Assembly: GCA_043821445.1 (NCBI GenBank)
Contig: JBDRCT010000005.1
Span: 2,593-66,592, forward strand
Origin: Candidatus Omnitrophota bacterium
Lineage (GTDB): Bacteria; Omnitrophota; Omnitrophia; Omnitrophales; Aquincolibacteriaceae
DNA length: 64,000 nt
Reading direction: 5' to 3'
In this document: piece after piece, positions 2,774-63,390 of the stretch
Position numbering within the stretch: the stretch's first letter is position 1
Layout: every line of letters starts with the position of its first letter
The notes under the pieces: model-generated
Databases searched by the model: none
The model's input: only the letters and a program-made list of their open reading frames with translations
What the model was told of the DNA's origin: nothing
Position numbers and translations under genes: made by a program

Positions 2774-2936
2774 CGCGAGGCCGCCGCAGGCGAGCCATGG
2801 CGATCTCGTTTTTAAAAAAGATTGCTTCGTACTTGCTTTCTACTGTTGTATGTTAAAAGACGGCAAGTACAGCACTGGCTTCCAATGTAAAATTTAATGA
2901 AAGCCAGGCGCCGTCTACGCGGCTCGCAATGACTGG

Positions 2937-3725
2937 TCATGTTAGATCATCCAGCACTTTGGTCGTCACAATGAAACTCGCGTTCTTGAGGCGAAGGATG
3001 TTCTTGCCTTTCAAAACCCACTGCAGGGTCTTCAGAAATTCCGTACGGTCGGCGATATGGATCAGGGAACCCCGATAGGCCACGCTGATCTGACCGCGTT
3101 CTTCGGAGACCACGAGCGCGATCGCGTCGATTTTTTCCGTGATCCCGATCGCCGCACGGTGGCGCGTGCCGAAGCTCGGCGAAAGATCGGAAAGCGACGC
3201 AAGAGGCAGGATCCCCTTGACGGTCTGCATGCGGCCTTTGTGCACCACCAGCGCGCCGTCATGAACGGGCGACGAGGTTAAAAAAAGCGGTACAAGGATC
3301 TCGGATCTGATCTCCGCATCAAAGGGCATCCCGCCCTTCATGTGCGGACGCAGAGGCTGTTTGCACTGGAGAATGATTAGGGCACCCACTTTGCGCGATG
3401 CCATCCGTTCCATGGCCGACCAGATCTCAAGAAGATAATGCGGAAGTTGGGGTGTTTTCCGGAAAAGATTACCCACCCGCTCGGCAAGCCACAGCGCACC
3501 CGAGATCACTATGTCCGTACAAAGCAGTCCGCCCGCTATCATGAGAAACGCGATCCCGGTCCGGTGTACCACTGAAGCGTCCAGGGAGGGCACGGCAAAA
3601 AAAAGCGCCGCCCAAAGGCAGAAGATCCCCGCTAGATACTTGAGGAGTGACCTCAGCCCGGCGAGTTTGAATGGATAGAAAAAATATCCGAGCGCGACGA
3701 CAACGGCAATGACCGTAATAAGCAT
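2937..3725 (-). CDS. cdaA: diadenylate cyclase CdaA (c-di-AMP synthase), membrane-anchored
   Basis: Three N-terminal transmembrane helices are followed by a DAC domain (DGALVVHKGRMQTVKGILPLA ... GTRHRAAIGITEKIDAIALVVSEERGQISV). I chose the internal ATG at 3725 because of the GGGGAGAG Shine-Dalgarno just upstream; the ORF-track start at 3821 would add 32 aa of low plausibility. Confidence 0.85.
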   Translation of the reverse strand: MLITVIAVVVALGYFFYPFKLAGLRSLLKYLAGIFCLWAALFFAVPSLDASVVHRTGIAFLMIAGGLLCTDIVISGALWLAERVGNLFRKTPQLPHYLLEIWSAMERMASRKVGALIILQCKQPLRPHMKGGMPFDAEIRSEILVPLFLTSSPVHDGALVVHKGRMQTVKGILPLASLSDLSPSFGTRHRAAIGITEKIDAIALVVSEERGQISVAYRGSLIHIADRTEFLKTLQWVLKGKNILRLKNASFIVTTKVLDDLT

Positions 3726-3867
3726 ACTCTCCCCTTTGAAAGCTGATGAAGCCTTGCGTATAGTTACGGCTGTTGGGGATATTAATGAAGCGCGGCACAA
3801 CGCGCAAAGCGCAACGCACAACGCTGACAGGTTTGTTGTGCGTTGAGCGTAAAACGTTGCACAATGT

Positions 3868-4812
3868 TTAGGCGGTTTTACGGACGATGAGTTTGGGAAG
3901 GTACCGTTTTGAAACAGGCCCGGAGGACGGACGTTCGATCTGCCGGATCAGGATATCCACGGCATCTTTTCCCATTTGGACGAGCGGCTGACGAACGGTC
4001 GTAAGCGGAGGCGAGGAACTCTTCGCGCATTCGTTGTCGTCGAACCCGACGACCGCCATGTCCTGGGGCACGCGTTTACCGGTTTCTTTGAGAGCTTTTA
4101 ATGCTCCGAACGCAAGGTCATCGTTCCCACACACGATCGCACCGGGCAAATTCTTTTCCCGCAGCCACCTTTTCATCATGCGATAGCCTTCCGCCTCGTT
4201 GTTGGCCGCTCCCGAACGGAGCCAGGTGGGGTCGCGCAGGATATGCTGGGTCTTAAGCGCCCGGATGAACCCGCGCACCTTGAGCTGGGTATCGACAAAA
4301 GACACTTTGACCTTCCTTTGCCCCGCCCTGAACGGAACTTCCCACGGCCCGTGCAGCATCCCGATCTTCCGGCGACTCTTTTTCACAAGGTGGGCTACCG
4401 CCTGTGCCATGCCCGCATTCGTGTCGATAGAGACGCTATTCACTCGAAGACCGGGAACCGGATCATTCACAACAAGCACCCGTGTGTGGCGGGAAGTTTC
4501 GATCAATTGTGCGATCTTGGGATGGATCCATCGCCAAGTCAAGATCATAAGCCCGTCCAGTCGATGTTCCTTGAGGATCTGATCCAGACTCCCGTAGGGC
4601 CTGGCGGGCATCATGACGATCTTAAGGCGGCCCTTCACCGTCTTGATCCGGGACAAGATCCCGGAAAGAAGCCCAAGGTGATAGCTTGAGTGGAAGATTT
4701 CTTTGGCGGGAGTGGTCAGAACGCCAAAGGTTCTGCGGTATTTTTGAAAGGAAGATCCCGCGGTATGTCGCGCCCGGGACCCCGAAGCTTTATCGGTTGC
4801 CCGGATTTTCAA
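3868..4812 (-). CDS. LacI-family (periplasmic-binding-fold) ligand-binding domain protein with no recognisable N-terminal HTH
   Basis: The 314-aa ORF aligns with the sugar-binding core of LacI/PurR regulators (VVNDPVPG..., GAIVCGNDDLAFGALKALKETGKRVPQDMAVVGFDDNECAK, TTVRQPLVQMGKDAV). Only about 20 aa precede the core, and there is neither an HTH_LacI segment nor a signal peptide. Confidence 0.6.
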   Translation of the reverse strand: MKIRATDKASGSRARHTAGSSFQKYRRTFGVLTTPAKEIFHSSYHLGLLSGILSRIKTVKGRLKIVMMPARPYGSLDQILKEHRLDGLMILTWRWIHPKIAQLIETSRHTRVLVVNDPVPGLRVNSVSIDTNAGMAQAVAHLVKKSRRKIGMLHGPWEVPFRAGQRKVKVSFVDTQLKVRGFIRALKTQHILRDPTWLRSGAANNEAEGYRMMKRWLREKNLPGAIVCGNDDLAFGALKALKETGKRVPQDMAVVGFDDNECAKSSSPPLTTVRQPLVQMGKDAVDILIRQIERPSSGPVSKRYLPKLIVRKTA

Positions 4813-5126: not shown

Positions 5127-5275
5127 GTTCTCTTTCCTGTACTGCGTTATATATTGATCTTATGGGTTCGCAGTGCTGGTACCGTTAACCCGTAAATAAA
5201 AAATGAAAAACGGTACCTGAGAGCATTACGTTCGATGAATGGCAAAACCACGAAGATAGGATACTCAAAAAGAGG

Positions 5276-7003: not shown

Positions 7004-7116
7004 AAGAAGTCCTAATATAGCAGAAGCGGGCAGACAATCAATAGAGGACTGCCTCCTTCTCTATGCCGCTTTCCCATGAGCGCCTGATTTTCTATTAAAG
7101 AATGAATCGAGAAATC

Positions 7117-7247
7117 AGTCCCAATACTTATCAATTTTTGCAAAGCGGAAATTGGGGCAGTCCAAGTCATCATCATTGAAAATAAAACAAAGACTTGGGC
7201 AGTGCAGTCCTGATGGACCCTCCTGGAAATGAATGGCATCATCAGGG
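7117..7247 (+). repeat. double-hairpin structured repeat, copy A (plus a third hairpin), in the divergent intergenic region upstream of hppA
   Basis: Hairpin 1 is CCCAAT..CAATTT-loop-AAATTGGGG (7120-7157). Hairpin 2 is GTCCAAGTC, a 23-nt A-rich loop, then GACTTGGGC (7160-7200). A third hairpin, CCTGATGG...CATCAGG (7209-7246), is followed by a T-rich tract. Each hairpin is preceded by AGTCC. Confidence 0.7.
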
Positions 7248-7441
7248 TGTTTAAATTTGGGTGGAATTTTTCTGGCGTTCCGCTATCATAAGTGCCCATT
7301 CGGCATCATTCAGCATATAAAGCCTTTAAGAACCTTATTTAATATCAACAACAAAAGATGATTATTAGCTTGGGCAATGCGTTTTTGGGTCATTCCACCG
7401 AAGATCTGCAAGACTTGAGTTATTAATTCAGCCGGAGACAT

Positions 7442-10965: not shown

Positions 10966-11122
10966 GTTGTTTCTCTTTAAAACCGGTTAGATGAACTGTT
11001 CTTTAAACAAAAAAAAGGATCGGGGGCATTCTCTCCATATACCAAGAAGGCCGACCCACGAAGGGTCGGCCTTCTTGCGTATTCTATCTGAAATAAAAAC
11101 AATCTGCAACGCCGACGGGATT

Positions 11123-11215
11123 AGTCCCAATCCCCTTCAATTTCAACAAAGTTGAAATTGGGGCAATCCTTGTCATCCATTAAGGAACTAAAATTCAAGA
11201 CAAGGATAGTGCTCG
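11123..11215 (+). repeat. double-hairpin structured repeat, copy B
   Basis: Hairpin 1 is CCCAAT..CCAATTTCAAC-aaa-GTTGAAATTGGGG, with a perfect 11-bp inner stem. Hairpin 2 is ATCCTTGTC, a 23-nt A-rich loop, then GACAAGGAT, with AA/TT to TT/AA compensatory changes relative to copy A. Confidence 0.7.
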
Positions 11216-11567: not shown

Positions 11568-12079
11568 ATCCTTCTATTCTCCTTTTTATGTTGCTTTTTT
11601 CGCGACGCAGCCCGGAAATTCTCTGGGTTTTGTGAGGCGGTACTGCCCTTGTCTTCTTTTCATTTCCTGAACGGTCGACAAGGACTGCCCTGATGACCCG
11701 TTTATTTTAAATAAATGAGAATCAGGACTGCACCATCGCTCGAACGATTTCCTTTAACTCTGAATGGGTATAAAAAAACGCCTTTGAGTCCCAAGCAATA
11801 CCCCGCGCTTGCAGGTCATCACTCAAAACTAAAGACGTCTTTGATCCATTTTCCACGTCATCCGAAGGGCTCGAATCCTTCCGATGCCACCCCTCTGAAC
11901 TTCGGGGCTCTTTCGGGCTGCACCTCACTATTGTTATCGACTTCTAAGGAGAAGTGTACGATGGAAAACACTTCATGTCAAACAAGTGAAGCTTTTTTTC
12001 AATCGGTCCCACAGAGAGATTCTGCTGAGACAAAAAGACGCAGTAACACATAACCTATTTATTCTAAACGGGTTATAGA

Positions 12080-27246: not shown

Positions 27247-27321
27247 ATGCCCTTCACCTGGCTTTCATTCTATTAAAATAAAAGTTCATTGACCCGATTT
27301 TTTCCGATATCCCTATCCTCG

Positions 27322-27390
27322 ACTAGTTTTTTAATTGCAAACTAGTGTTGTCCAAGTCATCGTTCAAAAAAATAAAATTAAGACTTGGGC
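27322..27390 (+). repeat. double-hairpin structured repeat, copy C
   Basis: Hairpin 1 is ACTAGTTT-tttaattgc-AAACTAGT. Hairpin 2 is GTCCAAGTC, a 23-nt A-rich loop, then GACTTGGGC, identical in its stems to copy A. It spans the stop codon of the 27378..27743 gene and lies 75-140 nt upstream of the receiver gene. Confidence 0.65.
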
Positions 27391-27743
27391 TGTTTATTGA
27401 AGGACTTGTTGAAATCCTGCCATTGCTGCGCGAGTTCCTTCTGAATCTGCTGGGTCTTTTCCTGGAGTTGTTTGGCAAGCGCATCCCATTGCTGCTGAAG
27501 TGTTTTAACGGTTTCCTGGACCTCGGCTTCCACCTTCTTGGAAGACTCAGCGACCTTTATGGCCCCCGTCGAAAGACCCTCACCGGCCGTGTCCTTCAAC
27601 TCCCGGGCCACCTCACCTGCCTGCCTGCCAAGGCTTTGGGGCGCGGCCTGGGTCCCAAGAGAAGCCTGCTCGTCCGCCGCATAAACCATCCCGGCTACAG
27701 CAAAGATCATGGCAACTGTGAATGCTACAAGTTTATATTTCAT
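27378..27743 (-). CDS. secreted coiled-coil protein (signal peptide, Gln/Lys-rich)
   Basis: The 121-aa protein begins with an MKYKLVAFTVAMIFAVAGMVYA signal peptide. A GGAGG Shine-Dalgarno precedes the start. No family recognised. Confidence 0.5.
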   Translation of the reverse strand: MKYKLVAFTVAMIFAVAGMVYAADEQASLGTQAAPQSLGRQAGEVARELKDTAGEGLSTGAIKVAESSKKVEAEVQETVKTLQQQWDALAKQLQEKTQQIQKELAQQWQDFNKSFNKQPKS

Positions 27744-27770: not shown

Positions 27771-27905
27771 TCGTACGGCGTAAGGAGTGCGGCCCTGACT
27801 CTTATAAAGATACAAGGAAGTCAGGACCGCACTAATTTCCTTATTAGTTTTTAATGAAAAATCAGTGCAGAGAAGAAACACCGTACGCCGTACACCTTGC
27901 ACCTT
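27771..27905. repeat. nested palindromic repeat, copy 1 (outer GTACGGCGTA/TACGCCGTAC arms enclosing a 15-bp-arm inner palindrome)
   Basis: The outer arms are CGTACGGCGTAA (27772-27783) and GTACGCCGTAC (27883-27893). Inside them, AGTGCGGCCCTGACT (27786-27800) pairs with AGTCAGGACCGCACT (27819-27833) at 14 of 15 positions. A CCTTGCACCTTAC tail follows. Confidence 0.6.
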
Positions 27906-31706: not shown

Positions 31707-31748
31707 ACAAAAAAACCCCGCTGGCCGAAGCCAACGGGGTTCTTTGTA
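31707..31748. terminator. bidirectional intrinsic terminator between the lipoprotein gene and csp
   Basis: A run of As is followed by a CCCCGCTGGC / GCCAACGGGG hairpin with a cgaa loop, then TTCTTTGT. Confidence 0.7.
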
Positions 31749-31764
31749 GTTCCAGTTGTGGTTC

Positions 31765-31965
31765 TTAGATCTTCACAACGTTAGAGGCTTGTTCGCCCTT
31801 GGGACCGCGGGTCACTTCAAATTCGACCGCTTGGCCTTCTTCCAAAGACTTGTATCCCTCACCCTGAATCGCGGTGTGATGCACGAAGACATCAGCGCCA
31901 CCCTCACGGGAGATGAATCCATAGCCCTTTGAGTTGTTAAACCACTTTACTTTACCTTGTACCAT
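31765..31965 (-). CDS. cspA: cold-shock protein (CspA family)
   Basis: The 66-aa protein reads [18 protein letters not shown] ... VFVHHTAIQ, with the RNP1 and RNP2 motifs. An AAGGAG Shine-Dalgarno precedes the ATG at 31965. Confidence 0.9.
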
Positions 31966-32100
31966 GGTTGATATTGCTCCTTTCACTTGAATTATAGTAA
32001 CGCATGACAAGTTCAACCTTCACTACGGTAAAAACATCAACCTGGTGCAGTTGGAACTAGCCCGCTTTGTTGTCCCCTTCCGGGGAGTTCGAAACAGGGT

Positions 32101-32140: not shown

Positions 32141-32249
32141 ACACATCATGTTCTACCTCCTGCTTACTACGAAAGAATTGTGCCCTATGTCGAACGGTTT
32201 GTCAAAGTTTATTTTAGCGCCGGCGGAGGTTCTCCGTTGTAAAGAAAAT

Positions 32250-32336
32250 GGTCCCAATACCTATCAATTTTCACGCAGTGGAAATTGGGGCCATCCTTGT
32301 CTGTCATTTAAGAAAAAAATCCAAGACAAGGATAGA
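32250..32336 (+). repeat. double-hairpin structured repeat, copy D, in the divergent csp / kinase-like intergenic region
   Basis: Hairpin 1 is CCCAAT..CAATTTTCAC-gcag-GTGGAAATTGGGG, with one T:G wobble on the plus strand. Hairpin 2 is ATCCTTGTC, a 23-nt A-rich loop, then GACAAGGAT. Confidence 0.7.
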
Positions 32337-45992: not shown

Positions 45993-48900
45993 TCAGGGGT
46001 TGGGATCCCGCGGGGAAATAAGTTCTTCTATTTTTTTTTCGAGGGTAAGCAAGGTTGCTTCCAAGTGCCGGGCACGGGCTTGGACTTTCATGTGGGCCCT
46101 TTTTTCTTCCTCGAGTTTTTCTTCGAGAGTCTTTTGGGCGATCCCTTTTTCGTTCAAAAGCTTTTCTTTCTCTTGGATCGTCTTCGTCAAGGCCTCCAGA
46201 ATGCGGATCTTTTCATCCTTTTCTCTCATTATCTGTTCTTTTTCGTCTTCAAGTCCATCGCATTGTCTCCGGACGTCTCGAGTTTGAACCTCGGCCTGAG
46301 CCAGAGCCTCGTCAAGATCTTTGATCTTGGCTAAAGCATTTTCGATCTCTTCCTTTTTTTTCTCGATTTTTCCGGCGAGAGATTCCTTTTCTTGTTCTGA
46401 AGCCACGAGCTCTGAGAGCCGGTCTTCCAGGTTTTTCCCCAAAGACAGCTTTTCTTCTTCGAGGCGCGCAAGATCCCGCTCAAGATTGTGCCGCTCATGC
46501 TCTAATCGCTTTTTGTCGTCCTCCAAAGACACTACCGCCTTGGCTCTCTCTTCTCCGGCCTTCACCAAAGCTTCCTTATCCCGCCACAAGCGATCCTTCT
46601 CGGACCTCAAAACTTCGGAATCATGATTCGCTCCCTCCAGATCCTTCTCCAATCCCTGGATCTTCCCTCTCAACTCCTCCAAGGTCTTCTCCGCTTCACG
46701 AAGTTTGTATCCCAACTGAACCGCTTCCTCCCCCTTCGCGGAAAGTTCTATCCTCAGGGATTCTCTCCCGCTCTCAAGCCGGCTCTTCTCTTCCTCCAGC
46801 GCAAGACGCTGCTTCTCGCGGGCTTCCAGTTCCATACGATGCTTCTCGGTCAGTTCGGCAGCGTTCGTTTCTCTCGCCTTAACCTCGGCTTCCTTCTCAG
46901 CGCATTTTGCCTCCCACCCCCGGATCTCCTCCCGCAACCGCGCTTCCTCCGCCGCCTTCGTTTCAAGTTCGCCGGACAACTGTTTCTTTTCATTTTCTAA
47001 AGACTGGGTCAGACCACGGCCCTCTTCCGAGGCCTTCTCAAATTCGAGGATCCGGGCCTTCAAGATCTCCGACTCCTCTTCCTTCGCACCCAAAGCTTTC
47101 TCAAGACTGTGTTTCTCATTCTCGAAATGCTTCTTATCGTCCCCCAAAGCAACAACAACGGCGCGGCTCTTCTCCAATATTTCCCTGGACTCGCGAAGCC
47201 GGGTCTTCAAGACCTCCGACTCTTCCTCCTTCGTGCCAAGATCCTTCTCAAGCTGATGTCTTTTATCCTCTAACTGCTTTTTGTCGTCCTCCAAAGCGGT
47301 AATAATGGCGCGGCCCTCCTCCGAGGCCTTCTCAAATTCGAGGATCCGGGTCTTCAAAGTCTCCGACTCTTCTTCCTTTGTATCGAGGTCTTTTTCAAAA
47401 CGAGCCTTCGCTTCCTCTGCCTCCGTTAACGCCTTGGCTTTTTCGGAAAGCTCTGTCTCGAGAGATTTTTTCTCACCCTCAAGCCGGCTCTTCTCTCCCT
47501 CCAACGCAAGACGCTGCTTCTCGTGGGCTTCCACCGCCATCCGGTGTTTCTCGGTCAGTTCGGCAGCGCTCACTTCGCTCTCAGCGCGTTTTGCCTCCAA
47601 CCCACGGATCTCCTCCCGCAACCGCGCTTCCTCCGCCACCTTCGTCTCAAGTTCTTTGGATAACTGCTCCTTTTCATCCTTCAAAGACTGGATCAGGCCG
47701 TGGCTCTTTTCCGAGGTCTCCTCAAATTCTCGGATCCGGGCCTTCAAAGTTTCGGACTCTTCTTTCTTCACGCCAAGATCCTTCTCAAGACGGGCCTTCG
47801 CTTCCTCTGCCTCGGCCAGCGCCCGGGCTTTCTCTTCCCCTGCCCTTAACAAAGCCTCCTTCTCCCGCTCCAAGCATTCCTTTTCAGAGCTCAAAACCCC
47901 GGAACCGCGGTGCGCTCCCTCCAGATCCTTCTCAAGACGGGCCTTCACTTCCTCTGCCTCGGCCAATGCCCGGGCTTTCTCTTCCCCGGCTCTTAACAAA
48001 GCCTCCTTCTCCCGCTCCAAGCGTTCCTTCTCAGAGCTCAAGACCCCGGAATCGCGATGCGCTCCCTCCAGATCCTTCTCAAGACGAACCTTCACTTCCT
48101 CTCTCTTTGCCAACGCCTTGGCCTTTTCGGAAAGTTCTATCCTCAGGGATTTTTTCTCGCCCTCAAGTTGGCTCTTCTCCTCCTCCAGCGCAAGGCGATG
48201 TTTCTCATGGGCTTCCACTGCCATCCGGTGTTTCTCGGTCAGTTCGACAGTGCTTGCTTCCCTTTCAGCGCGTTTTGTCTCCAACCCCCGGATCTCTTCC
48301 CACAACCGCGCTTCCTCCGCCACCTTCGTTTCAAGTTCCCTGGATAATTGCTCCTTTTCATCCTCCAAGGACCGGATCCGGTCGTGACTCTCCTCTGAGG
48401 CCTCCTCAAATTCGCGGAGCCGGGCCTTCAAGTTTTCAGATTCTTCCTCTTTCGTACCAAGATCTTTCTCGAGACGGGCACGGATTTCCTCCAAAGATGT
48501 TAACGCATGGGCTTTTTCTTCGAAGCTTTGTATTTGTGCACGCGCGATCCTGACTTCCGTCTCAAGTTCGGCCGCCCTTTTCCCTGCTTTTTCCCCGTCA
48601 CCGCGAATGCGTTTGATCACGTCGATCAGCAGGGCATTCTCTTTTTCCAAAGCTTTTTTCTTATTTTCCTCATAAGCAGGTTTTGTTTTATAAGCTTCTA
48701 CGTGGGCCCTTTTTTCCGCCGCCAGATCCTCTTCGAGTCCCTCGCATTTCTTTCTCAGCTCCTCGATACGGGCCTCCAAGCGTTTTTTTTCAAACCCTGC
48801 CTTATCCACCCCGGATGTCAGGTACTCATCTTTATTTTCATGGAGAAATTGCGAGGGCGAGCCGAGCGAGTACACTTTGGAAGGAGGGGGTGCTTGGGAA

Positions 48901-51683: not shown

Positions 51684-51731
51684 GGAATCTCCTGCCCCCA
51701 ATTATATCAAGCGATCAGGTGGGTCTTTGAA

Positions 51732-52697
51732 CTAAGATGATTGAATTTTTTCATAAAGTTGTGCGGCTAAATCTTTGTTGAGATTATTTAATATTGCGTA
51801 CTGTTTTAACGCAGAGTCTTTCTTATGAAGAGATAAATGTGCCATTCCAAGATTGTAATAGGCCATAGCATTCCGAGCATCCAGGGAGAGGGCCTTGTCA
51901 AAAAGCTCGATCGCTTTTTGGGCATCATCTTTCTGGAGGTAGACATTACCCAAACCGGCGTAAGCATTAGAATCCTTGTCGTTCAAGGAGACGGCCTTGT
52001 CAAAAGACTCGATCGCTTTTTGGGCATCACCTTTCCGGAGGTAGGCATTCCCCAAACTGGCGTAAACATTGGAATCCTTGGCGTTCAAGGAGACGGCCTT
52101 GTTAAAAGACTCGATGGCTTTGTCGGCATTGCCTTGGCTGGAATAGATATTACCCAAACCGACATAACTATAGAGATCCTGTGGATTCAGGGAGAGGGCC
52201 TTGTTATAAGACTCGATCGCTTGATCGGCATTGCCTTGGCTGAAATAGATATTGCCCAAACCGACGTAAGCACTGGAATCTTCGGCAGCCAAGGAGATGG
52301 CTTTGTTATAACACTCGATCGCTTTATCGAGATTGCCTTTTCGGAAATAGAGATTACCTAAACCGCCGTAAGCATAGAGATTTTCCGGATCCAGGGAAAT
52401 GGCCTTGTCAAAAGACTCGATCGCTTTGTCGAGATCGCCTCTCCTGGAATAGAGATTACCCAGATCGACGTAAGCAAAGAGACTCTCCGGGTCCAGGGAA
52501 ATGGCCTCATGGAAGGATTCGATCGCTTTATCGCTGTCGCCCTTTGCCGCCTCTTCCCTCCCCGCGATAATACACTGGTCTGCCGTGACAACATTTTCTG
52601 CATCGGCTGCATAACTGCTTGGATGACTACAAATAAAAAATACTATGGGGGCCAAAAATACTAGGTTTATGGGTCTAAAAAACGAGTGTTTTTTCAT
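51732..52697 (-). CDS. secreted TPR-repeat protein (paralog 1)
   Basis: The protein has an MKKHSFFRPINLVFLAPIVFFICSHPSSYAA signal peptide and about 7 TPR units (AYVDLGNLYSRRGDLDKAIESFDKAISLDP...). Its C-terminus is conserved with the paralogs at 62154 and 62732. Confidence 0.75.
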   Translation of the reverse strand: MKKHSFFRPINLVFLAPIVFFICSHPSSYAADAENVVTADQCIIAGREEAAKGDSDKAIESFHEAISLDPESLFAYVDLGNLYSRRGDLDKAIESFDKAISLDPENLYAYGGLGNLYFRKGNLDKAIECYNKAISLAAEDSSAYVGLGNIYFSQGNADQAIESYNKALSLNPQDLYSYVGLGNIYSSQGNADKAIESFNKAVSLNAKDSNVYASLGNAYLRKGDAQKAIESFDKAVSLNDKDSNAYAGLGNVYLQKDDAQKAIELFDKALSLDARNAMAYYNLGMAHLSLHKKDSALKQYAILNNLNKDLAAQLYEKIQSS

Positions 52698-52782
52698 GGT
52701 TGATCCCTCGCCTAAGTGGTCTGTTGCCGAAGCGAAATTGCCTGTTTGTTCTCGCTCTCTTCCGTAAACGATTGGACGGGAC

Positions 52783-61387: not shown

Positions 61388-61520
61388 GACGCCCGATTAT
61401 CATAAATTTTTCAACCGGAAATCGGTGCTGTCCTTGGCGCCCTGGCTCTCATTAAAAAATTAACAGTTAGCCAGGACAGTCCAGGTCGCCCTTTATGAAA
61501 AGAAAACAAAGACCTGGACG
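61388..61520 (+). repeat. double-hairpin structured repeat, copy E (a composite with an extra inserted hairpin)
   Basis: The hairpin 1 homolog, CCCGAT..AAATTTTTCAACCGGAAATCGGTG, aligns with copy A and has A>G / T>C compensatory changes. An extra CCTGGCT...AGCCAGG hairpin (61441-61475) is inserted. Hairpin 2 is GTCCAGGTC, a 23-nt A-rich loop, then GACCTGGAC (61479-61519). Confidence 0.65.
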
Positions 61521-61554
61521 ACCATTAAGAAAAAGAAATAAACGACAAGGACGC

Positions 61555-61947: not shown

Positions 61948-62153
61948 TTTATCTCCCATTTCATTCAGGCACCGGGATGGCCCGGTACCACTGCCCCACT
62001 ATCATGACACGGCAGGGATGAAATGGCTAACAAAAGTGCTGGCGCTCCTATTTCGTGGCCTCTAAAAATACGAAGGCCGCCGGGGTGATCCCCCGGTGGC
62101 CTTTTGTGTGACTCCATTTCCAGGCTGCCCTTGCAGAAGGCGCCTGCTTTGGG

Positions 62154-62612
62154 TTAAGAGGATTGGATTCTTTTATAAAGCTCCTTGGCTAAATTTTTGT
62201 TTAAACCGCTTAATATTTTGTGTTGTTTTAACGCAGCATCCTTATCGCCTTTCTGGAGATAGAGGTCACCCAAACCGACGTAAGCATTAGGATCCTTGGC
62301 GTTCAAAGAGATGGCCTTGTTGAAAGATTCGATCGCTTTATCGATATTGCCTTTCTGGGCATAGAGGTGACCCAAACCGATAATAGCATTGAGATTCTGC
62401 GCGTCCAGGGAGGCGGCCTTGTTATAAAACTCGATCGCTTTATCGACGTCGCCCTTCTTCACCGCTTCATTACCAGCTATAATACAATCGTTTGAGTCTT
62501 CAATACACCCGTTTGAGCCTGCAGCATAACTGCTTGGATGATTGCAAACAAAAAACGTTGCTTGAACTAAAAACACCAGGCTTACTAATCTAAAAAAGAA
62601 ATCTCTTCTCAT
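62154..62612 (-). CDS. secreted TPR-repeat protein (paralog 2, short)
   Basis: The N-terminal leader FFVCNHPSSYAA and the C-terminus AALKQHKILSGLNKNLAKELYKRIQSS are shared with the paralogs. Confidence 0.7.
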   Translation of the reverse strand: MRRDFFFRLVSLVFLVQATFFVCNHPSSYAAGSNGCIEDSNDCIIAGNEAVKKGDVDKAIEFYNKAASLDAQNLNAIIGLGHLYAQKGNIDKAIESFNKAISLNAKDPNAYVGLGDLYLQKGDKDAALKQHKILSGLNKNLAKELYKRIQSS

Positions 62613-62731
62613 TTTTGATCTCTCTCATGAGTTATTTGTTACCGAAGCGAAACTGCCTAACGGTTGTTCCCTCACTCAGCGGATGGTTCGACAGCAGGTT
62701 GCCCTCCCTGAGGGCGCCTATTTTGGTACGC

Positions 62732-63304
62732 CTACTGTGGCTTTGGGCTAAAGGCTTGAATTCTTTTATCAAGTTGCTCGGCTAATTTTTTGTCTAAATC
62801 ACTTAATATTTTGTGTTGTTTTAACGCAGCGTCCTTATCGCCTTTCTGGATATAGAGATGACCCAAACTGGAGTGAGCCTGGGGATCCTTGGGATCCAGG
62901 GAGATGGCCTTGTTGAAAGAATCGATCGCTTTATCGATATTGCCTTTCTGGAGATAGAGGTTACCCAAACCGATATAAGCATAGAGACTCTTCGAATTCA
63001 GGGAGATGGCCTTGTTAAAAGACTCGAGCGCTTTATCGGCATCGCCTTTCTGAAAATAGGCATTACCCAAACCGACATAAACACTGAGATTCTTCGGATC
63101 CAGGGAGACGGCCTTGTTAAAAGACTCGAGCGCTTTATCGACGTCATTCTTTTGCATCGCTTCCGCGCCGTCCTTAACACACTGTTCTGCTGTTGCAATA
63201 TTTTCTGCGTCTGTGGCATAACTGCTTGGATGACTACAAATAAAAAACACTGCCAGGGCCAAAAATACCAGGCTCGTTGATCTGAAAAAGGATTGTTTTC
63301 TCAT
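62732..63304 (-). CDS. secreted TPR-repeat protein (paralog 3)
   Basis: The signal peptide ends FFICSHPSSYATDAEN. There are four TPR units, and the C-terminus is shared with the paralogs. Confidence 0.7.
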   Translation of the reverse strand: MRKQSFFRSTSLVFLALAVFFICSHPSSYATDAENIATAEQCVKDGAEAMQKNDVDKALESFNKAVSLDPKNLSVYVGLGNAYFQKGDADKALESFNKAISLNSKSLYAYIGLGNLYLQKGNIDKAIDSFNKAISLDPKDPQAHSSLGHLYIQKGDKDAALKQHKILSDLDKKLAEQLDKRIQAFSPKPQ

Positions 63305-63390
63305 TTTTAATCCCTCGCCTAAGTTGTTTGTTGCCAAAGCAAAATAATCAGCTTGTTCTTCCCCTTTTCAAGGGACAGCTTTTTGGGATA

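Follow-up and report, generated by a model that had tools for sequence, protein, structure and literature searches.

Hairpin-module repeats of Candidatus Omnitrophota probably represent nonautonomous mobile elements, some co-opted as leaders

Introduction

Repetitive extragenic palindromic (REP) sequences, like the related BIME and REPIN, are proteobacterial repeats mobilized by RAYT transposases of the Y1 (HUH) class, whose genes follow a single-copy, vertically inherited pattern. Palindrome-associated transposable elements (PATEs) are nonautonomous derivatives of IS200/IS605 that follow a guide/cleavage-site logic, and the BOX elements of the pneumococcus and the Correia/NEMIS elements of Neisseria are modular repeats with reported effects on neighboring gene expression. 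Here, we analyze a 64,000-nucleotide stretch of contig JBDRCT010000005.1 (assembly GCA_043821445.1) from a Candidatus Omnitrophota bacterium, referred to as the window, which carries dispersed, noncoding elements of ~85 to 135 nt built from hairpin modules, typically a first hairpin (H1) followed by a second (H2). These elements are a previously undescribed family, specific to a clade of Candidatus Omnitrophota. They very probably represent nonautonomous mobile hairpin-module repeats, similar to REP sequences and to miniature inverted-repeat transposable elements (MITEs), some of which may have been co-opted as ribosome-binding leaders. Omnitrophota is an uncultivated phylum, and our literature searches found no interspersed repeat, REP, MITE, or structured RNA of this kind described for Omnitrophota or Omnitrophica.

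Like REP sequences, the elements are short, extragenic, imperfect palindromes of high copy number (159 in 673 kb and 6 strong copies in the 64-kb window, all intergenic), and they share a tetranucleotide foot that is conserved on the 5' side of the hairpin, compensatory stems, strand-asymmetric G.T pairs, and mosaic clusters. RAYT-like genes, single-copy and syntenic, are also present in the same clade. The foot, however, reads (N)GTCC or ATCC and is itself paired within the stem, which makes it an analogue of the GTAG foot of REP sequences but not its equal, and the modules carry ~23-nt loops or a 10-nt bulge. Most elements are single H1-H2 units, unlike REPINs, and inverted neighbors are few (loci L064, L005, L077, and L016). 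Clear insertion sites with a flanking trinucleotide repeat further separate them from REP sequences, and the Omnitrophota RAYT-like genes are bordered by other, nondispersed palindromes.

The resemblance to MITEs lies in the small, noncoding, multicopy, and intergenic nature of the elements, their insertion polymorphism, short direct repeats at their ends, and genome-specific bursts. Unlike MITEs, they share only the 4-nt RTCC/GGAY foot between their two ends, which are different hairpins rather than terminal inverted repeats, and the 1.73 Mb surrounding ~230 copies yielded no parent insertion sequence. With PATEs, they share different subterminal hairpins, the lack of terminal inverted repeats, one strand favored for folding, and possibly a short flank or target complementary to an internal sequence beside the hairpin foot. 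Their site differs from that of PATEs in spanning only 3 nt, with the same trinucleotide on both sides and a mostly identical central base (A.A or T.T); neither TnpA nor TnpB is linked to them, and there is no excess of lagging-strand-template orientation as inferred from gene orientation. As in BOX and Correia elements, the build is modular, the number of internal modules varies, and stable RNA hairpins form upon cotranscription. The sequences are nevertheless unrelated, Correia elements carry terminal inverted repeats and generate a TA duplication, and the mobility of BOX is poorly documented, whereas the empty sites of the Omnitrophota elements are explicit. In its mode of action, the family resembles REP/BIME and the miniature elements derived from IS200/IS605, and in its construction, the modular BOX repeats. 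Unusual features of the family are its explicit insertion footprints, covariation between the insertion site and a base inside the element, and the repeated recruitment of copies as leaders for translation initiation.

Precise empty sites and nested insertions

Locus L070 (MHFU01; flanking proteins 70 to 95% identical) is syntenic with the window at 9.9 to 12.5 kb. Both genomes carry two elements in this stretch, at four positions in all, and every filled position corresponds to an empty site in the other genome. Copy B of the window (11121..11209, plus strand; H1 11124-11164, H2 11166-11207; 92.6 bits with our covariance model, R1) is bordered by TAG on both sides, such that gggatTAG[B]TAGtgctcgg in the window corresponds to gggatTAGtag.. 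in L070. This site is likewise empty in L107 and in L109, the latter having one perfect TAG there (90.6% identity over 180 nt). Copy F (11643..11731, minus strand; 42.3 bits, E = 1e-8) consists of an H1 variant, GTCCTGAT...ATCAGGGC, at 11687-11728 and an H2 at 11645-11685, and it is bordered by CAG on both sides: the window reads gatggtgCAG[F]CAGtaccgcc, and the empty site in L070 reads gatggtgCAGtaccgcc. A third site pairs ctgggCGG[..]CTGcgccgcg with tccgggCTGcgtcgcg, and one of the L070 copies interrupts a terminator hairpin that stays intact in the window.

Comparable pairs occur elsewhere. A copy in L109 lies exactly at the start codon of the permease gene (ccttCTA[86 nt]CTATGgca), where L108 has cttcCTATGgca, and this insertion falls between a promoter-like site and the ATG. 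Further precise filled and empty pairs were found between L074 (filled) and the window (empty), between L060 (filled) and L050 (empty) at two sites, and between L094 and L100 (in both directions), and an automated search returned many additional precise empty sites. Together, these sites form a readable natural record of hairpin-repeat movement and array building.

Elements are also inserted into one another. The core of copy A (7115..7202, plus strand; H1 7118-7158, H2 7160-7200, CAG on both sides) is supported by R1 (94.4 bits, E = 6e-22) and by its predicted fold, and it is missing at this position in three close relatives (L107, L108, and L109). Its flanks belong to another hairpin repeat, the H3-type, whose left part is a degenerate H2-like hairpin (CTGATTT...AAATCAG; 7083..7120, plus strand) with a terminal CAG that is the insertion trinucleotide of copy A. 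The right part of this older repeat is a third hairpin module with the same foot (GTCCTGATG...CATCAGGGT; 7207..7248, plus strand). The array thus begins at ~7083, earlier than previously noted, and H1-H2 sits between the degenerate hairpin and the third one. The preliminary description of the window had assigned copy A a third hairpin followed by a T-tract; the hairpin holds, whereas the T-tract (TGTTTAAATTT) is weak and is not called by a terminator scan. The same H3-type unit is found without H1-H2 in L060 (2790-2860), L223, L066, and L083, and of two tandem host repeats in L060, one is empty (gaagtCAGtgttGTCCTGATGG) and the other is filled (gaagtCAG[H1-H2]CTGtgttGTCCTGATGG).

A second host is the hairpin TACCGTT...AACGGTA. 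In the metagenome-assembled genome (MAG) JAHFHJ01 (L015, L059, L071, L093, and L054), H1-H2 is nested in the loop of this hairpin, and the composite has been amplified into near-identical copies. The same host type occurs in the window without an insert, as a solitary H2-like hairpin at 5170..5219 on the plus strand (GGTACCGTT, loop, AACGGTACC; R1 E = 0.0023). Many other arrays differ only in whether a junction trinucleotide holds an H1-H2 unit. The precise syntenic empty sites and the nested insertions demonstrably identify the elements as mobile.

Insertion at YNG trinucleotides

Empty sites hold one YNG trinucleotide (TAG, CAG, CTG, or CGG), and the same trinucleotide is found on both sides when the site is filled. 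Of 199 distinct copies, 133 have the same trinucleotide on both flanks, compared to a mean of 50 and a maximum of 66 in shuffles. Across the 199 copies, TAG is the most frequent (102), followed by CAG (35), CGG (18), TGG (16), CTG (12), and CCG (7). In 193 of the 199 copies, the first base of the trinucleotide can pair with the base that opens H2 at the H1/H2 junction, and complementarity of its first and third bases to the junction (C-N-R) holds for the same number. The central base follows a different rule: an A or T is the same as the central base of the junction (A.A or T.T), whereas a G or C is complementary to it.

These regularities suggest how the elements may spread. An element would insert into an intergenic YNG trinucleotide, most often TAG, which then borders it on both sides, and the foot or junction sequence would dictate the site. 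New modules would land at the junction trinucleotides of existing modules, and arrays and nested composites would build up because such landings are frequent. The stems would stay paired by compensatory change because the mobilizing machinery recognizes a folded single strand, most likely of DNA and possibly also of the transcript. The single-stranded DNA mechanism and the mobilizing enzyme are inferred.

Modular architecture and compensatory stems

Each hairpin module has a conserved 4-bp foot (RTCC...GGRY), one linker base separates neighboring modules, and arrays of two to four modules are common. The sequence of H1 hardly varies (GTCCCAAT, followed by a 10-nt bulge, CAATTT, and AAATTGGGGC), with the consensus GTCC-CAAT-[A/T]C[C/T]TAT-CAATTT-(4 variable)-loop3-(4 variable)-AAATTG-GGGC, although the invariance of its lower part is partly by construction, since the H1 alignment includes pattern-selected copies only. 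The second foot pair of H1 is T.G in 88 of 89 copies, and the 10-nt bulge on its 5' side is bordered by repeated CAAT, which allows two possible registers. H1 is likely the recognition module. H2 retains the foot and has an A-rich loop of ~23 nt that is partly conserved (ACCATT..GAAAAGAAAATAAA), and its inner 5 bp vary freely yet stay complementary (TTGTC, TGACT, AAACT, AAGTC, CAACT, and CGACT). Further module types are GTCCCAATTCCAATCAATCGAAGC..GATTGGGGC, GTCCCCATACCTATCATCCCGCC..GGCGGGATGGGGC, the H1 variant also seen in copy F, and the TACCGTT type. For the five copies of the window described earlier (A to E), our analysis recovered the reported positions, hairpins, and paired stem differences, along with the (N)GTCC lead-in before each hairpin, a first hairpin of the form CCCAAT..CAATTT, loop, AAATTGGGG, and a second hairpin with a 9-bp stem and an A-rich loop of ~23 nt.

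The stems covary. Across 89 copies, 97.9% of the alignment cells at stem positions are paired, compared to 84.8% in shuffles and at most 54% for slid partners. Both sides have changed in 12 pairs, with 317 double-change cells, and none of 500 shuffles reaches the observed values. The covariation first read from the five copies therefore stands as evidence of structural constraint, but the argument drawn from it against a mobile repeat does not, given the empty sites and nesting described above. A generic scan for any RTCC...GGRY hairpin returned 118 matches compared to 76 expected and was too noisy for use.

On the strand as drawn, G.T pairs outnumber A.C pairs by 130 to 12, which agrees with the earlier suggestion that the wobbles favor the plus strand, mostly on account of two columns that hold 109 of the G.T pairs; elsewhere, the counts are 21 and 12. 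Whether modeled as RNA or as DNA, the elements have predicted folds with z-scores between -3.8 and -6.4, and the drawn strand folds better than its complement (RNA z-scores of -4.8 to -6.4 compared to -2.7 to -4.8). Stable predicted folds and a plus-strand wobble bias would also be expected if the elements were independently transcribed, trans-acting small RNAs (sRNAs). We find this hardly credible, as the copies come with no conserved promoter or terminator, hundreds of diverged copies have freely varying stems and no common seed, and copies directly abut start and stop codons.

The same stems bear on the possibility that the elements are double-stranded DNA binding sites or promoter elements for a transcription factor or nucleoid protein. 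Their intergenic location and the invariant H1 sequence would be compatible with such sites. H2 and the upper stem of H1, however, preserve complementarity rather than sequence, unlike the evolution of a duplex-DNA site. Copies in convergent regions and directly after stop codons, as well as the insertion polymorphism, are further points against this reading, which we regard as extremely unlikely.

Distribution within Candidatus Omnitrophota

We scanned one genome per GTDB species with the exact H1 pattern, which returned at least 106 stretches. Among the matches listed, 99 belong to ~20 MAG species of Candidatus Omnitrophota, and the other 7 (Nitrosopolaris, Bacillus, Chitinophagaceae, and others) are without the foot and H2 and appear to be chance matches. 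A metagenome collection contributed at least 120 further matching stretches, and viral contigs contained no copy of the H1 pattern. With R1, the 673 kb of genome loci from the ~20 Omnitrophota MAG species yielded 159 copies, ~50 of which are not the copy that seeded the locus. The latter correspond to ~1 per 13 kb, which agrees with the 6 strong R1 copies in the 64-kb window. In the window itself, the H1 pattern occurs 3 times compared to 0.00 expected (100 shuffles), and a repeat finder clusters the window copies as families D9 and D10.

Density varies from 0 to ~1 per 10 kb between genomes, highest in the rich ones, and copy number differs even between close relatives: 21.7 kb of syntenic sequence in L107 and in L108 contains no copy, compared to 6 in the 64-kb window. 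In some genomes, the elements fill a large share of the intergenic space and break assemblies at contig ends. No Rfam match was found on the elements at gathering thresholds or at E <= 5, which bears out the earlier remark that they match no known riboswitch or sRNA; the curated models, including yybP-ykoY for the copy upstream of terC, give nothing.

Genomic context and captured leaders

To describe the gene context, R1 matches were masked, open reading frames (ORFs) were called crudely, and the 99 copies with both neighbors within 500 nt were counted. Between codirectional genes, 42 copies are antisense and 26 are sense, while 19 copies lie between divergent and 12 between convergent genes. 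Intergenic regions as a whole are 64% codirectional, 19% divergent, and 16% convergent. The element contexts are thus near the baseline mix, and the orientation bias is weak (42 versus 26; P = 0.07). The 99 copies show no promoter enrichment relative to the baseline. We found no riboswitch-like tie to one gene class, the neighbors being unrelated housekeeping genes. An intrinsic-terminator role was also considered and rejected, as no T-run follows the hairpins in either orientation, and an orientation bias of the lagging-strand style is unsupported by the gene-orientation proxy.

The preliminary description named a cis-regulatory RNA among its candidates; such a leader would control a downstream gene in the manner of a riboswitch, thermometer, or attenuator. 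In favor of this reading, the stems covary, none of the five copies noted earlier is more than 250 nt from a gene start, copies in codirectional contexts have a median distance of ~38 nt to the start codon on their antisense side, and a subset of copies constitutes an entire leader with an unpaired AAAGG. The mixed orientation argues against it, as do the 12 copies between convergent genes, where leaders do not exist, and the functionally unrelated housekeeping genes that adjoin the copies. The same gene can be found with or without an element in close relatives, Rfam gives no match even at E <= 5, and in most contexts the transcribed strand is not the one that the wobbles favor. Copy A is instructive in this respect. 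It lies upstream of both a conserved promoter-like site of the permease gene (TTGATT-16-TATATT; 7041-7014, minus strand) and a conserved block upstream of hppA, and it thus sits in the spacer between the two promoters rather than in a leader. Proximity to gene starts holds for the five reported copies, but placement in a leader fails for copy A. We judge the leader-RNA reading very unlikely for the family as a whole. The cis-regulatory RNA, sRNA, and duplex-DNA-site readings all fail because of the mixed orientation and context, the unrelated neighbors, and the presence or absence of elements in relatives.

A cis-acting RNA role is plausible only for the subset of antisense copies that form a whole leader abutting an ATG. 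In 15 of 116 copies, CAT directly precedes the foot on its 5' side and is the ATG of a gene on the opposite strand, with 12 distinct real genes represented, including those for L28, prfB with its frameshift, ptsI, a metH-like protein, an ECF sigma factor, and an SDR protein. In these genes, the antisense H1 is the whole 5' leader next to the ATG, and its predicted fold leaves Shine-Dalgarno-like bases in the unpaired bulge. The bulge sequence CCTTT, which reads AAAGG in the mRNA, is present in 10 of the 15 ATG-abutting copies but in only 2 of the 101 others (Fisher P = 2e-9). This enrichment suggests a ribosome-binding function for the antisense H1 leader. In 9 of 116 copies, the 5' TAG is an in-frame stop codon.

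On the mobile-repeat reading, these are side effects on host genes: transcribed copies would add stable hairpins to untranslated regions (UTRs), the TAG serves as the stop codon of some genes, and at a dozen or more genes an antisense copy has become the whole 5' leader with an AAAGG bulge. That the H1 bulge has been recruited repeatedly as an AAAGG leader, at 12 housekeeping genes, presents a testable case of translation initiation rewired by a mobile element. Elements that supply start-codon leaders and stop codons could also easily be misannotated as riboswitches or sRNAs. As individual cases, the element abuts the ATG of prfB in L025 and L102, where a frame-0 stop at 26 codons accompanies the programmed +1 frameshift, and the ATG of rpmB (L28) in L085.

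Age and maintenance of the copies

Identity between copies is nearly as high between genomes (69%) as within a genome (72%), and the same H2 stem subfamilies are found again in many genomes. A few genomes show bursts, with identities as high as 98 to 99%; examples are JAHFHJ01 (mean identity, 88%) and JAZDFE01 (up to 99%). The copies of the window are 71 to 78% identical, and by this measure they are old and diverged rather than the product of a recent burst. Orthologous copies persist in three species, and one has undergone a compensatory change in place, from ATCC/GGAT to ACCC/GGGT (T:A to C:G). This change at an orthologous site argues that stems are kept after insertion, which could be caused by continued mobility, gene conversion, or host use.

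Persistence might then be due mainly to use by the host as RNA-level UTR modules, with mobility a mere route of arrival. The modules could serve as exonuclease barriers, intercistronic punctuation, portable ribosome-binding leaders, or sites for clade-specific proteins. The near invariance of H1 in ~20 species, the compensatory change in orthologous copies, the enrichment of AAAGG at the ATG-abutting copies of 12 genes, and the partly conserved A-rich loop of H2 are all in keeping with this possibility. On the other side, close relatives are without an element at the same sites, genomes vary in density between 0 and ~1 copy per 10 kb, both orientations occur, and the nested insertions look selfish. 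We therefore consider host use unlikely as the main reason for persistence, yet plausible as a secondary layer in which resident copies act as UTR hairpins or ribosome-binding leaders.

Search for a mobilizing enzyme

A tblastn search with IS608 TnpA and the Escherichia coli RAYT, a weak test, gave no match in the first 740 kb; it also placed no TnpA between an H1 and an H2. A later search with these queries returned one match, in L198, and the L198 protein as a query identified a degenerate paralogue in L082. The L198 gene (3023-3688) is Y1 (HUH) transposase-like. An element lies 146 nt upstream of it, and its opposite flank carries a weak, inverted H2-like unit. Its product scores 69.7 bits against NCBIfam REP_Tyr_transpos (cutoff, 80) and 28.3 bits against Pfam Y1_Tnp (cutoff, 23), with visible HUH and Y..NP motifs; the RAYT-like ORFs overall score 55 to 70 bits with REP_Tyr_transpos, below the cutoff of 80. 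The L082 paralogue (3530-4186; 54.9 bits with REP_Tyr_transpos) lies 45 nt downstream of an element and appears degenerate, with the tyrosine replaced by phenylalanine (F-IHLLP) and the HUH motif reduced to one histidine.

Homologues of the L198 type, with 52 to 74% identity, are common in Omnitrophota. Single-copy RAYT-like genes were located at L198:3023-3688, L232-L234:3001-3648, L235:3001-3657, L237:1441-2088, and L239:3001-3660, and three lineages share one conserved position, between a giant gene and DUF1844-LPG_synthase-aroQ-accB-accC. Single-copy genes inherited vertically in this way are in keeping with RAYTs. An element lies within 400 nt of the RAYT-like gene in L198, L082, L232, and L237 but not in L235 and L239; the proximity in L198 and L082 is biased, as these loci were chosen for containing H1, and the other four are unbiased. 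The RAYT-like enzyme is a tentative candidate for the mobilizer, although we doubt that it is the one. A ~90-nt segment 3' of the RAYT-like gene (L198:3755-3850, L232:3720-3815, and L235:3735-3825; atgcgagacttacgggtctcgactcacctg.agaggttcgtggccaccagatccccactcggtcacgaacctctttttt) is strongly conserved and, with a promoter-like TATAAT upstream and a terminator, looks like an sRNA gene in its own right.

A more elaborate version of the mobile-repeat reading would treat the GTCC-foot hairpins as self-targeting modules. Each module would carry in its foot or junction the sequence that specifies its 3-nt site, whether through pairing or through a common core, and would be moved as folded single-stranded DNA by a domesticated, vertically inherited RAYT-like Y1 enzyme, homing to earlier junctions; the bulge of an antisense H1 would then be captured as a leader. 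We regard this version as improbable in its full form. If true, it would constitute a REP-like system with programmable-looking target choice and documented transposition, the latter being, to our knowledge, hard to show for classical REPs.

Several observations weigh against the elements being nonautonomous mobile repeats. No autonomous copy or transposase tied to the element was found in the 1.73 Mb around ~230 copies, and none of these copies showed an H1...gene...H2 arrangement. The loci searched contained no multicopy ORFs, and ORFs between inverted or direct pairs of elements encode housekeeping functions and no transposase. The RAYT-like genes are bordered by their own, different palindromes (ACACACCCGGTGTGT, CAAATCCGGGATTTG, and AAGACCGGGTTCTAGAACCCGGTCTT). 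One-base mismatches between the trinucleotides are frequent and occur in several filled and empty pairs, one of which has two mismatched bases, such that the three-base repeat could be a duplication, a shared recombination core, or an element-carried end. The conservation of H1 over ~20 species and the retention of stems at orthologous sites would also fit a host function. H1 copies without an adjacent H2, taken as a possible sign of autonomy, included none that was convincing. The RAYT-flanking palindromes are lineage specific and short looped, with 2 to 4 copies per gene and arms that covary between lineages around a CCGGG/CCCGG center. They were considered as a dispersed repeat and rejected, as they are found only at RAYT loci within the 1.73 Mb. 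On balance, the empty sites, the nested insertions, and the flanking trinucleotides still make nonautonomous mobile repeats the most convincing account of the family.

Other copies in the window and adjoining features

R1 extends the five reported copies of the window to six, with copy F as the addition, and it identifies weaker single or degenerate units as well. Copy F also breaks the uniform orientation that had been ascribed to the copies, being on the minus strand. Copy C (27306..27392, plus strand; 39.5 bits, E = 6e-8) has a degenerate H1 (CTAGTTT/AAACTAG) and an H2 at 27350-27390. Copy D (32248..32335, plus strand; 91.7 bits) has H1 at 32251-32291 and H2 at 32293-32333, with TGG on its left and TAG on its right. 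Copy E (61388..61521, plus strand; 36 bits, E = 4.5e-7) combines an H1 variant, CCCGAT...ATCGG, with two H2 modules (~61431-61477 and 61479-61519). All three are supported by their predicted folds. Weak degenerate units at 27789..27870 match R1 on either strand (E = 0.01), the clearest hairpin being GTCCTGACT...AGTCAGGGC at 27792-27827 on the minus strand. A very weak pair of H2-like hairpins at 2827..2914 on the minus strand (E = 0.043) is located inside a 165-nt spacer (2773-2937) between a DAC-domain gene and an FGGY kinase gene; in L079 and L109, the orthologues of these genes overlap without the spacer.

The genes previously assigned to the flanks, encoding a Usp-domain permease, an H+-PPase, TerC, and a receiver, were recovered. 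The window ORFs adjoining copies D and E encode a kinase-like protein and a secreted protein, neither of which is a mobilizing enzyme, and an exact-protein lookup of the window TerC gene returned no record. Beside copy D, at the csp gene, Rfam places a subthreshold cspA thermoregulator match (46.9 bits, compared to a gathering score of 78) at 31711-32089 on the minus strand.

Copy F is in the sense orientation, ~75 nt upstream of a small secreted-protein gene. In the same region, a noncoding stretch of ~230 nt at 11770-12010 on the minus strand is conserved in L070 (600-830), with a TTGACA-like hexamer before it and a terminator-like gggactcaaaggcgttttttt at its end. Rfam gave no match on this stretch, which could be an unannotated sRNA or could lead into the gene for the small, acidic secreted protein (11566-11345) as its leader.

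Another family of dispersed repeats is made up of GC-rich hairpins whose loop, (T/A)CGCTGG, is conserved, such as GGGAATCCACGCTGGGGATTCCC and GATCGCCTCGCTGGGGCGATC. Examples lie at L079:4400-4460 and 4530-4575 and beside elements in L005, L049, L022, and L100. These hairpins often adjoin the GTCC-foot elements, and contigs often end there. Finally, large minus-strand ORFs of the window contain long in-frame tandem repeats at 46490-48520, 51720-52740, and 62150-63350, with periods of 147 and 684 nt in one region and a TPR-like period of 102 nt in another.

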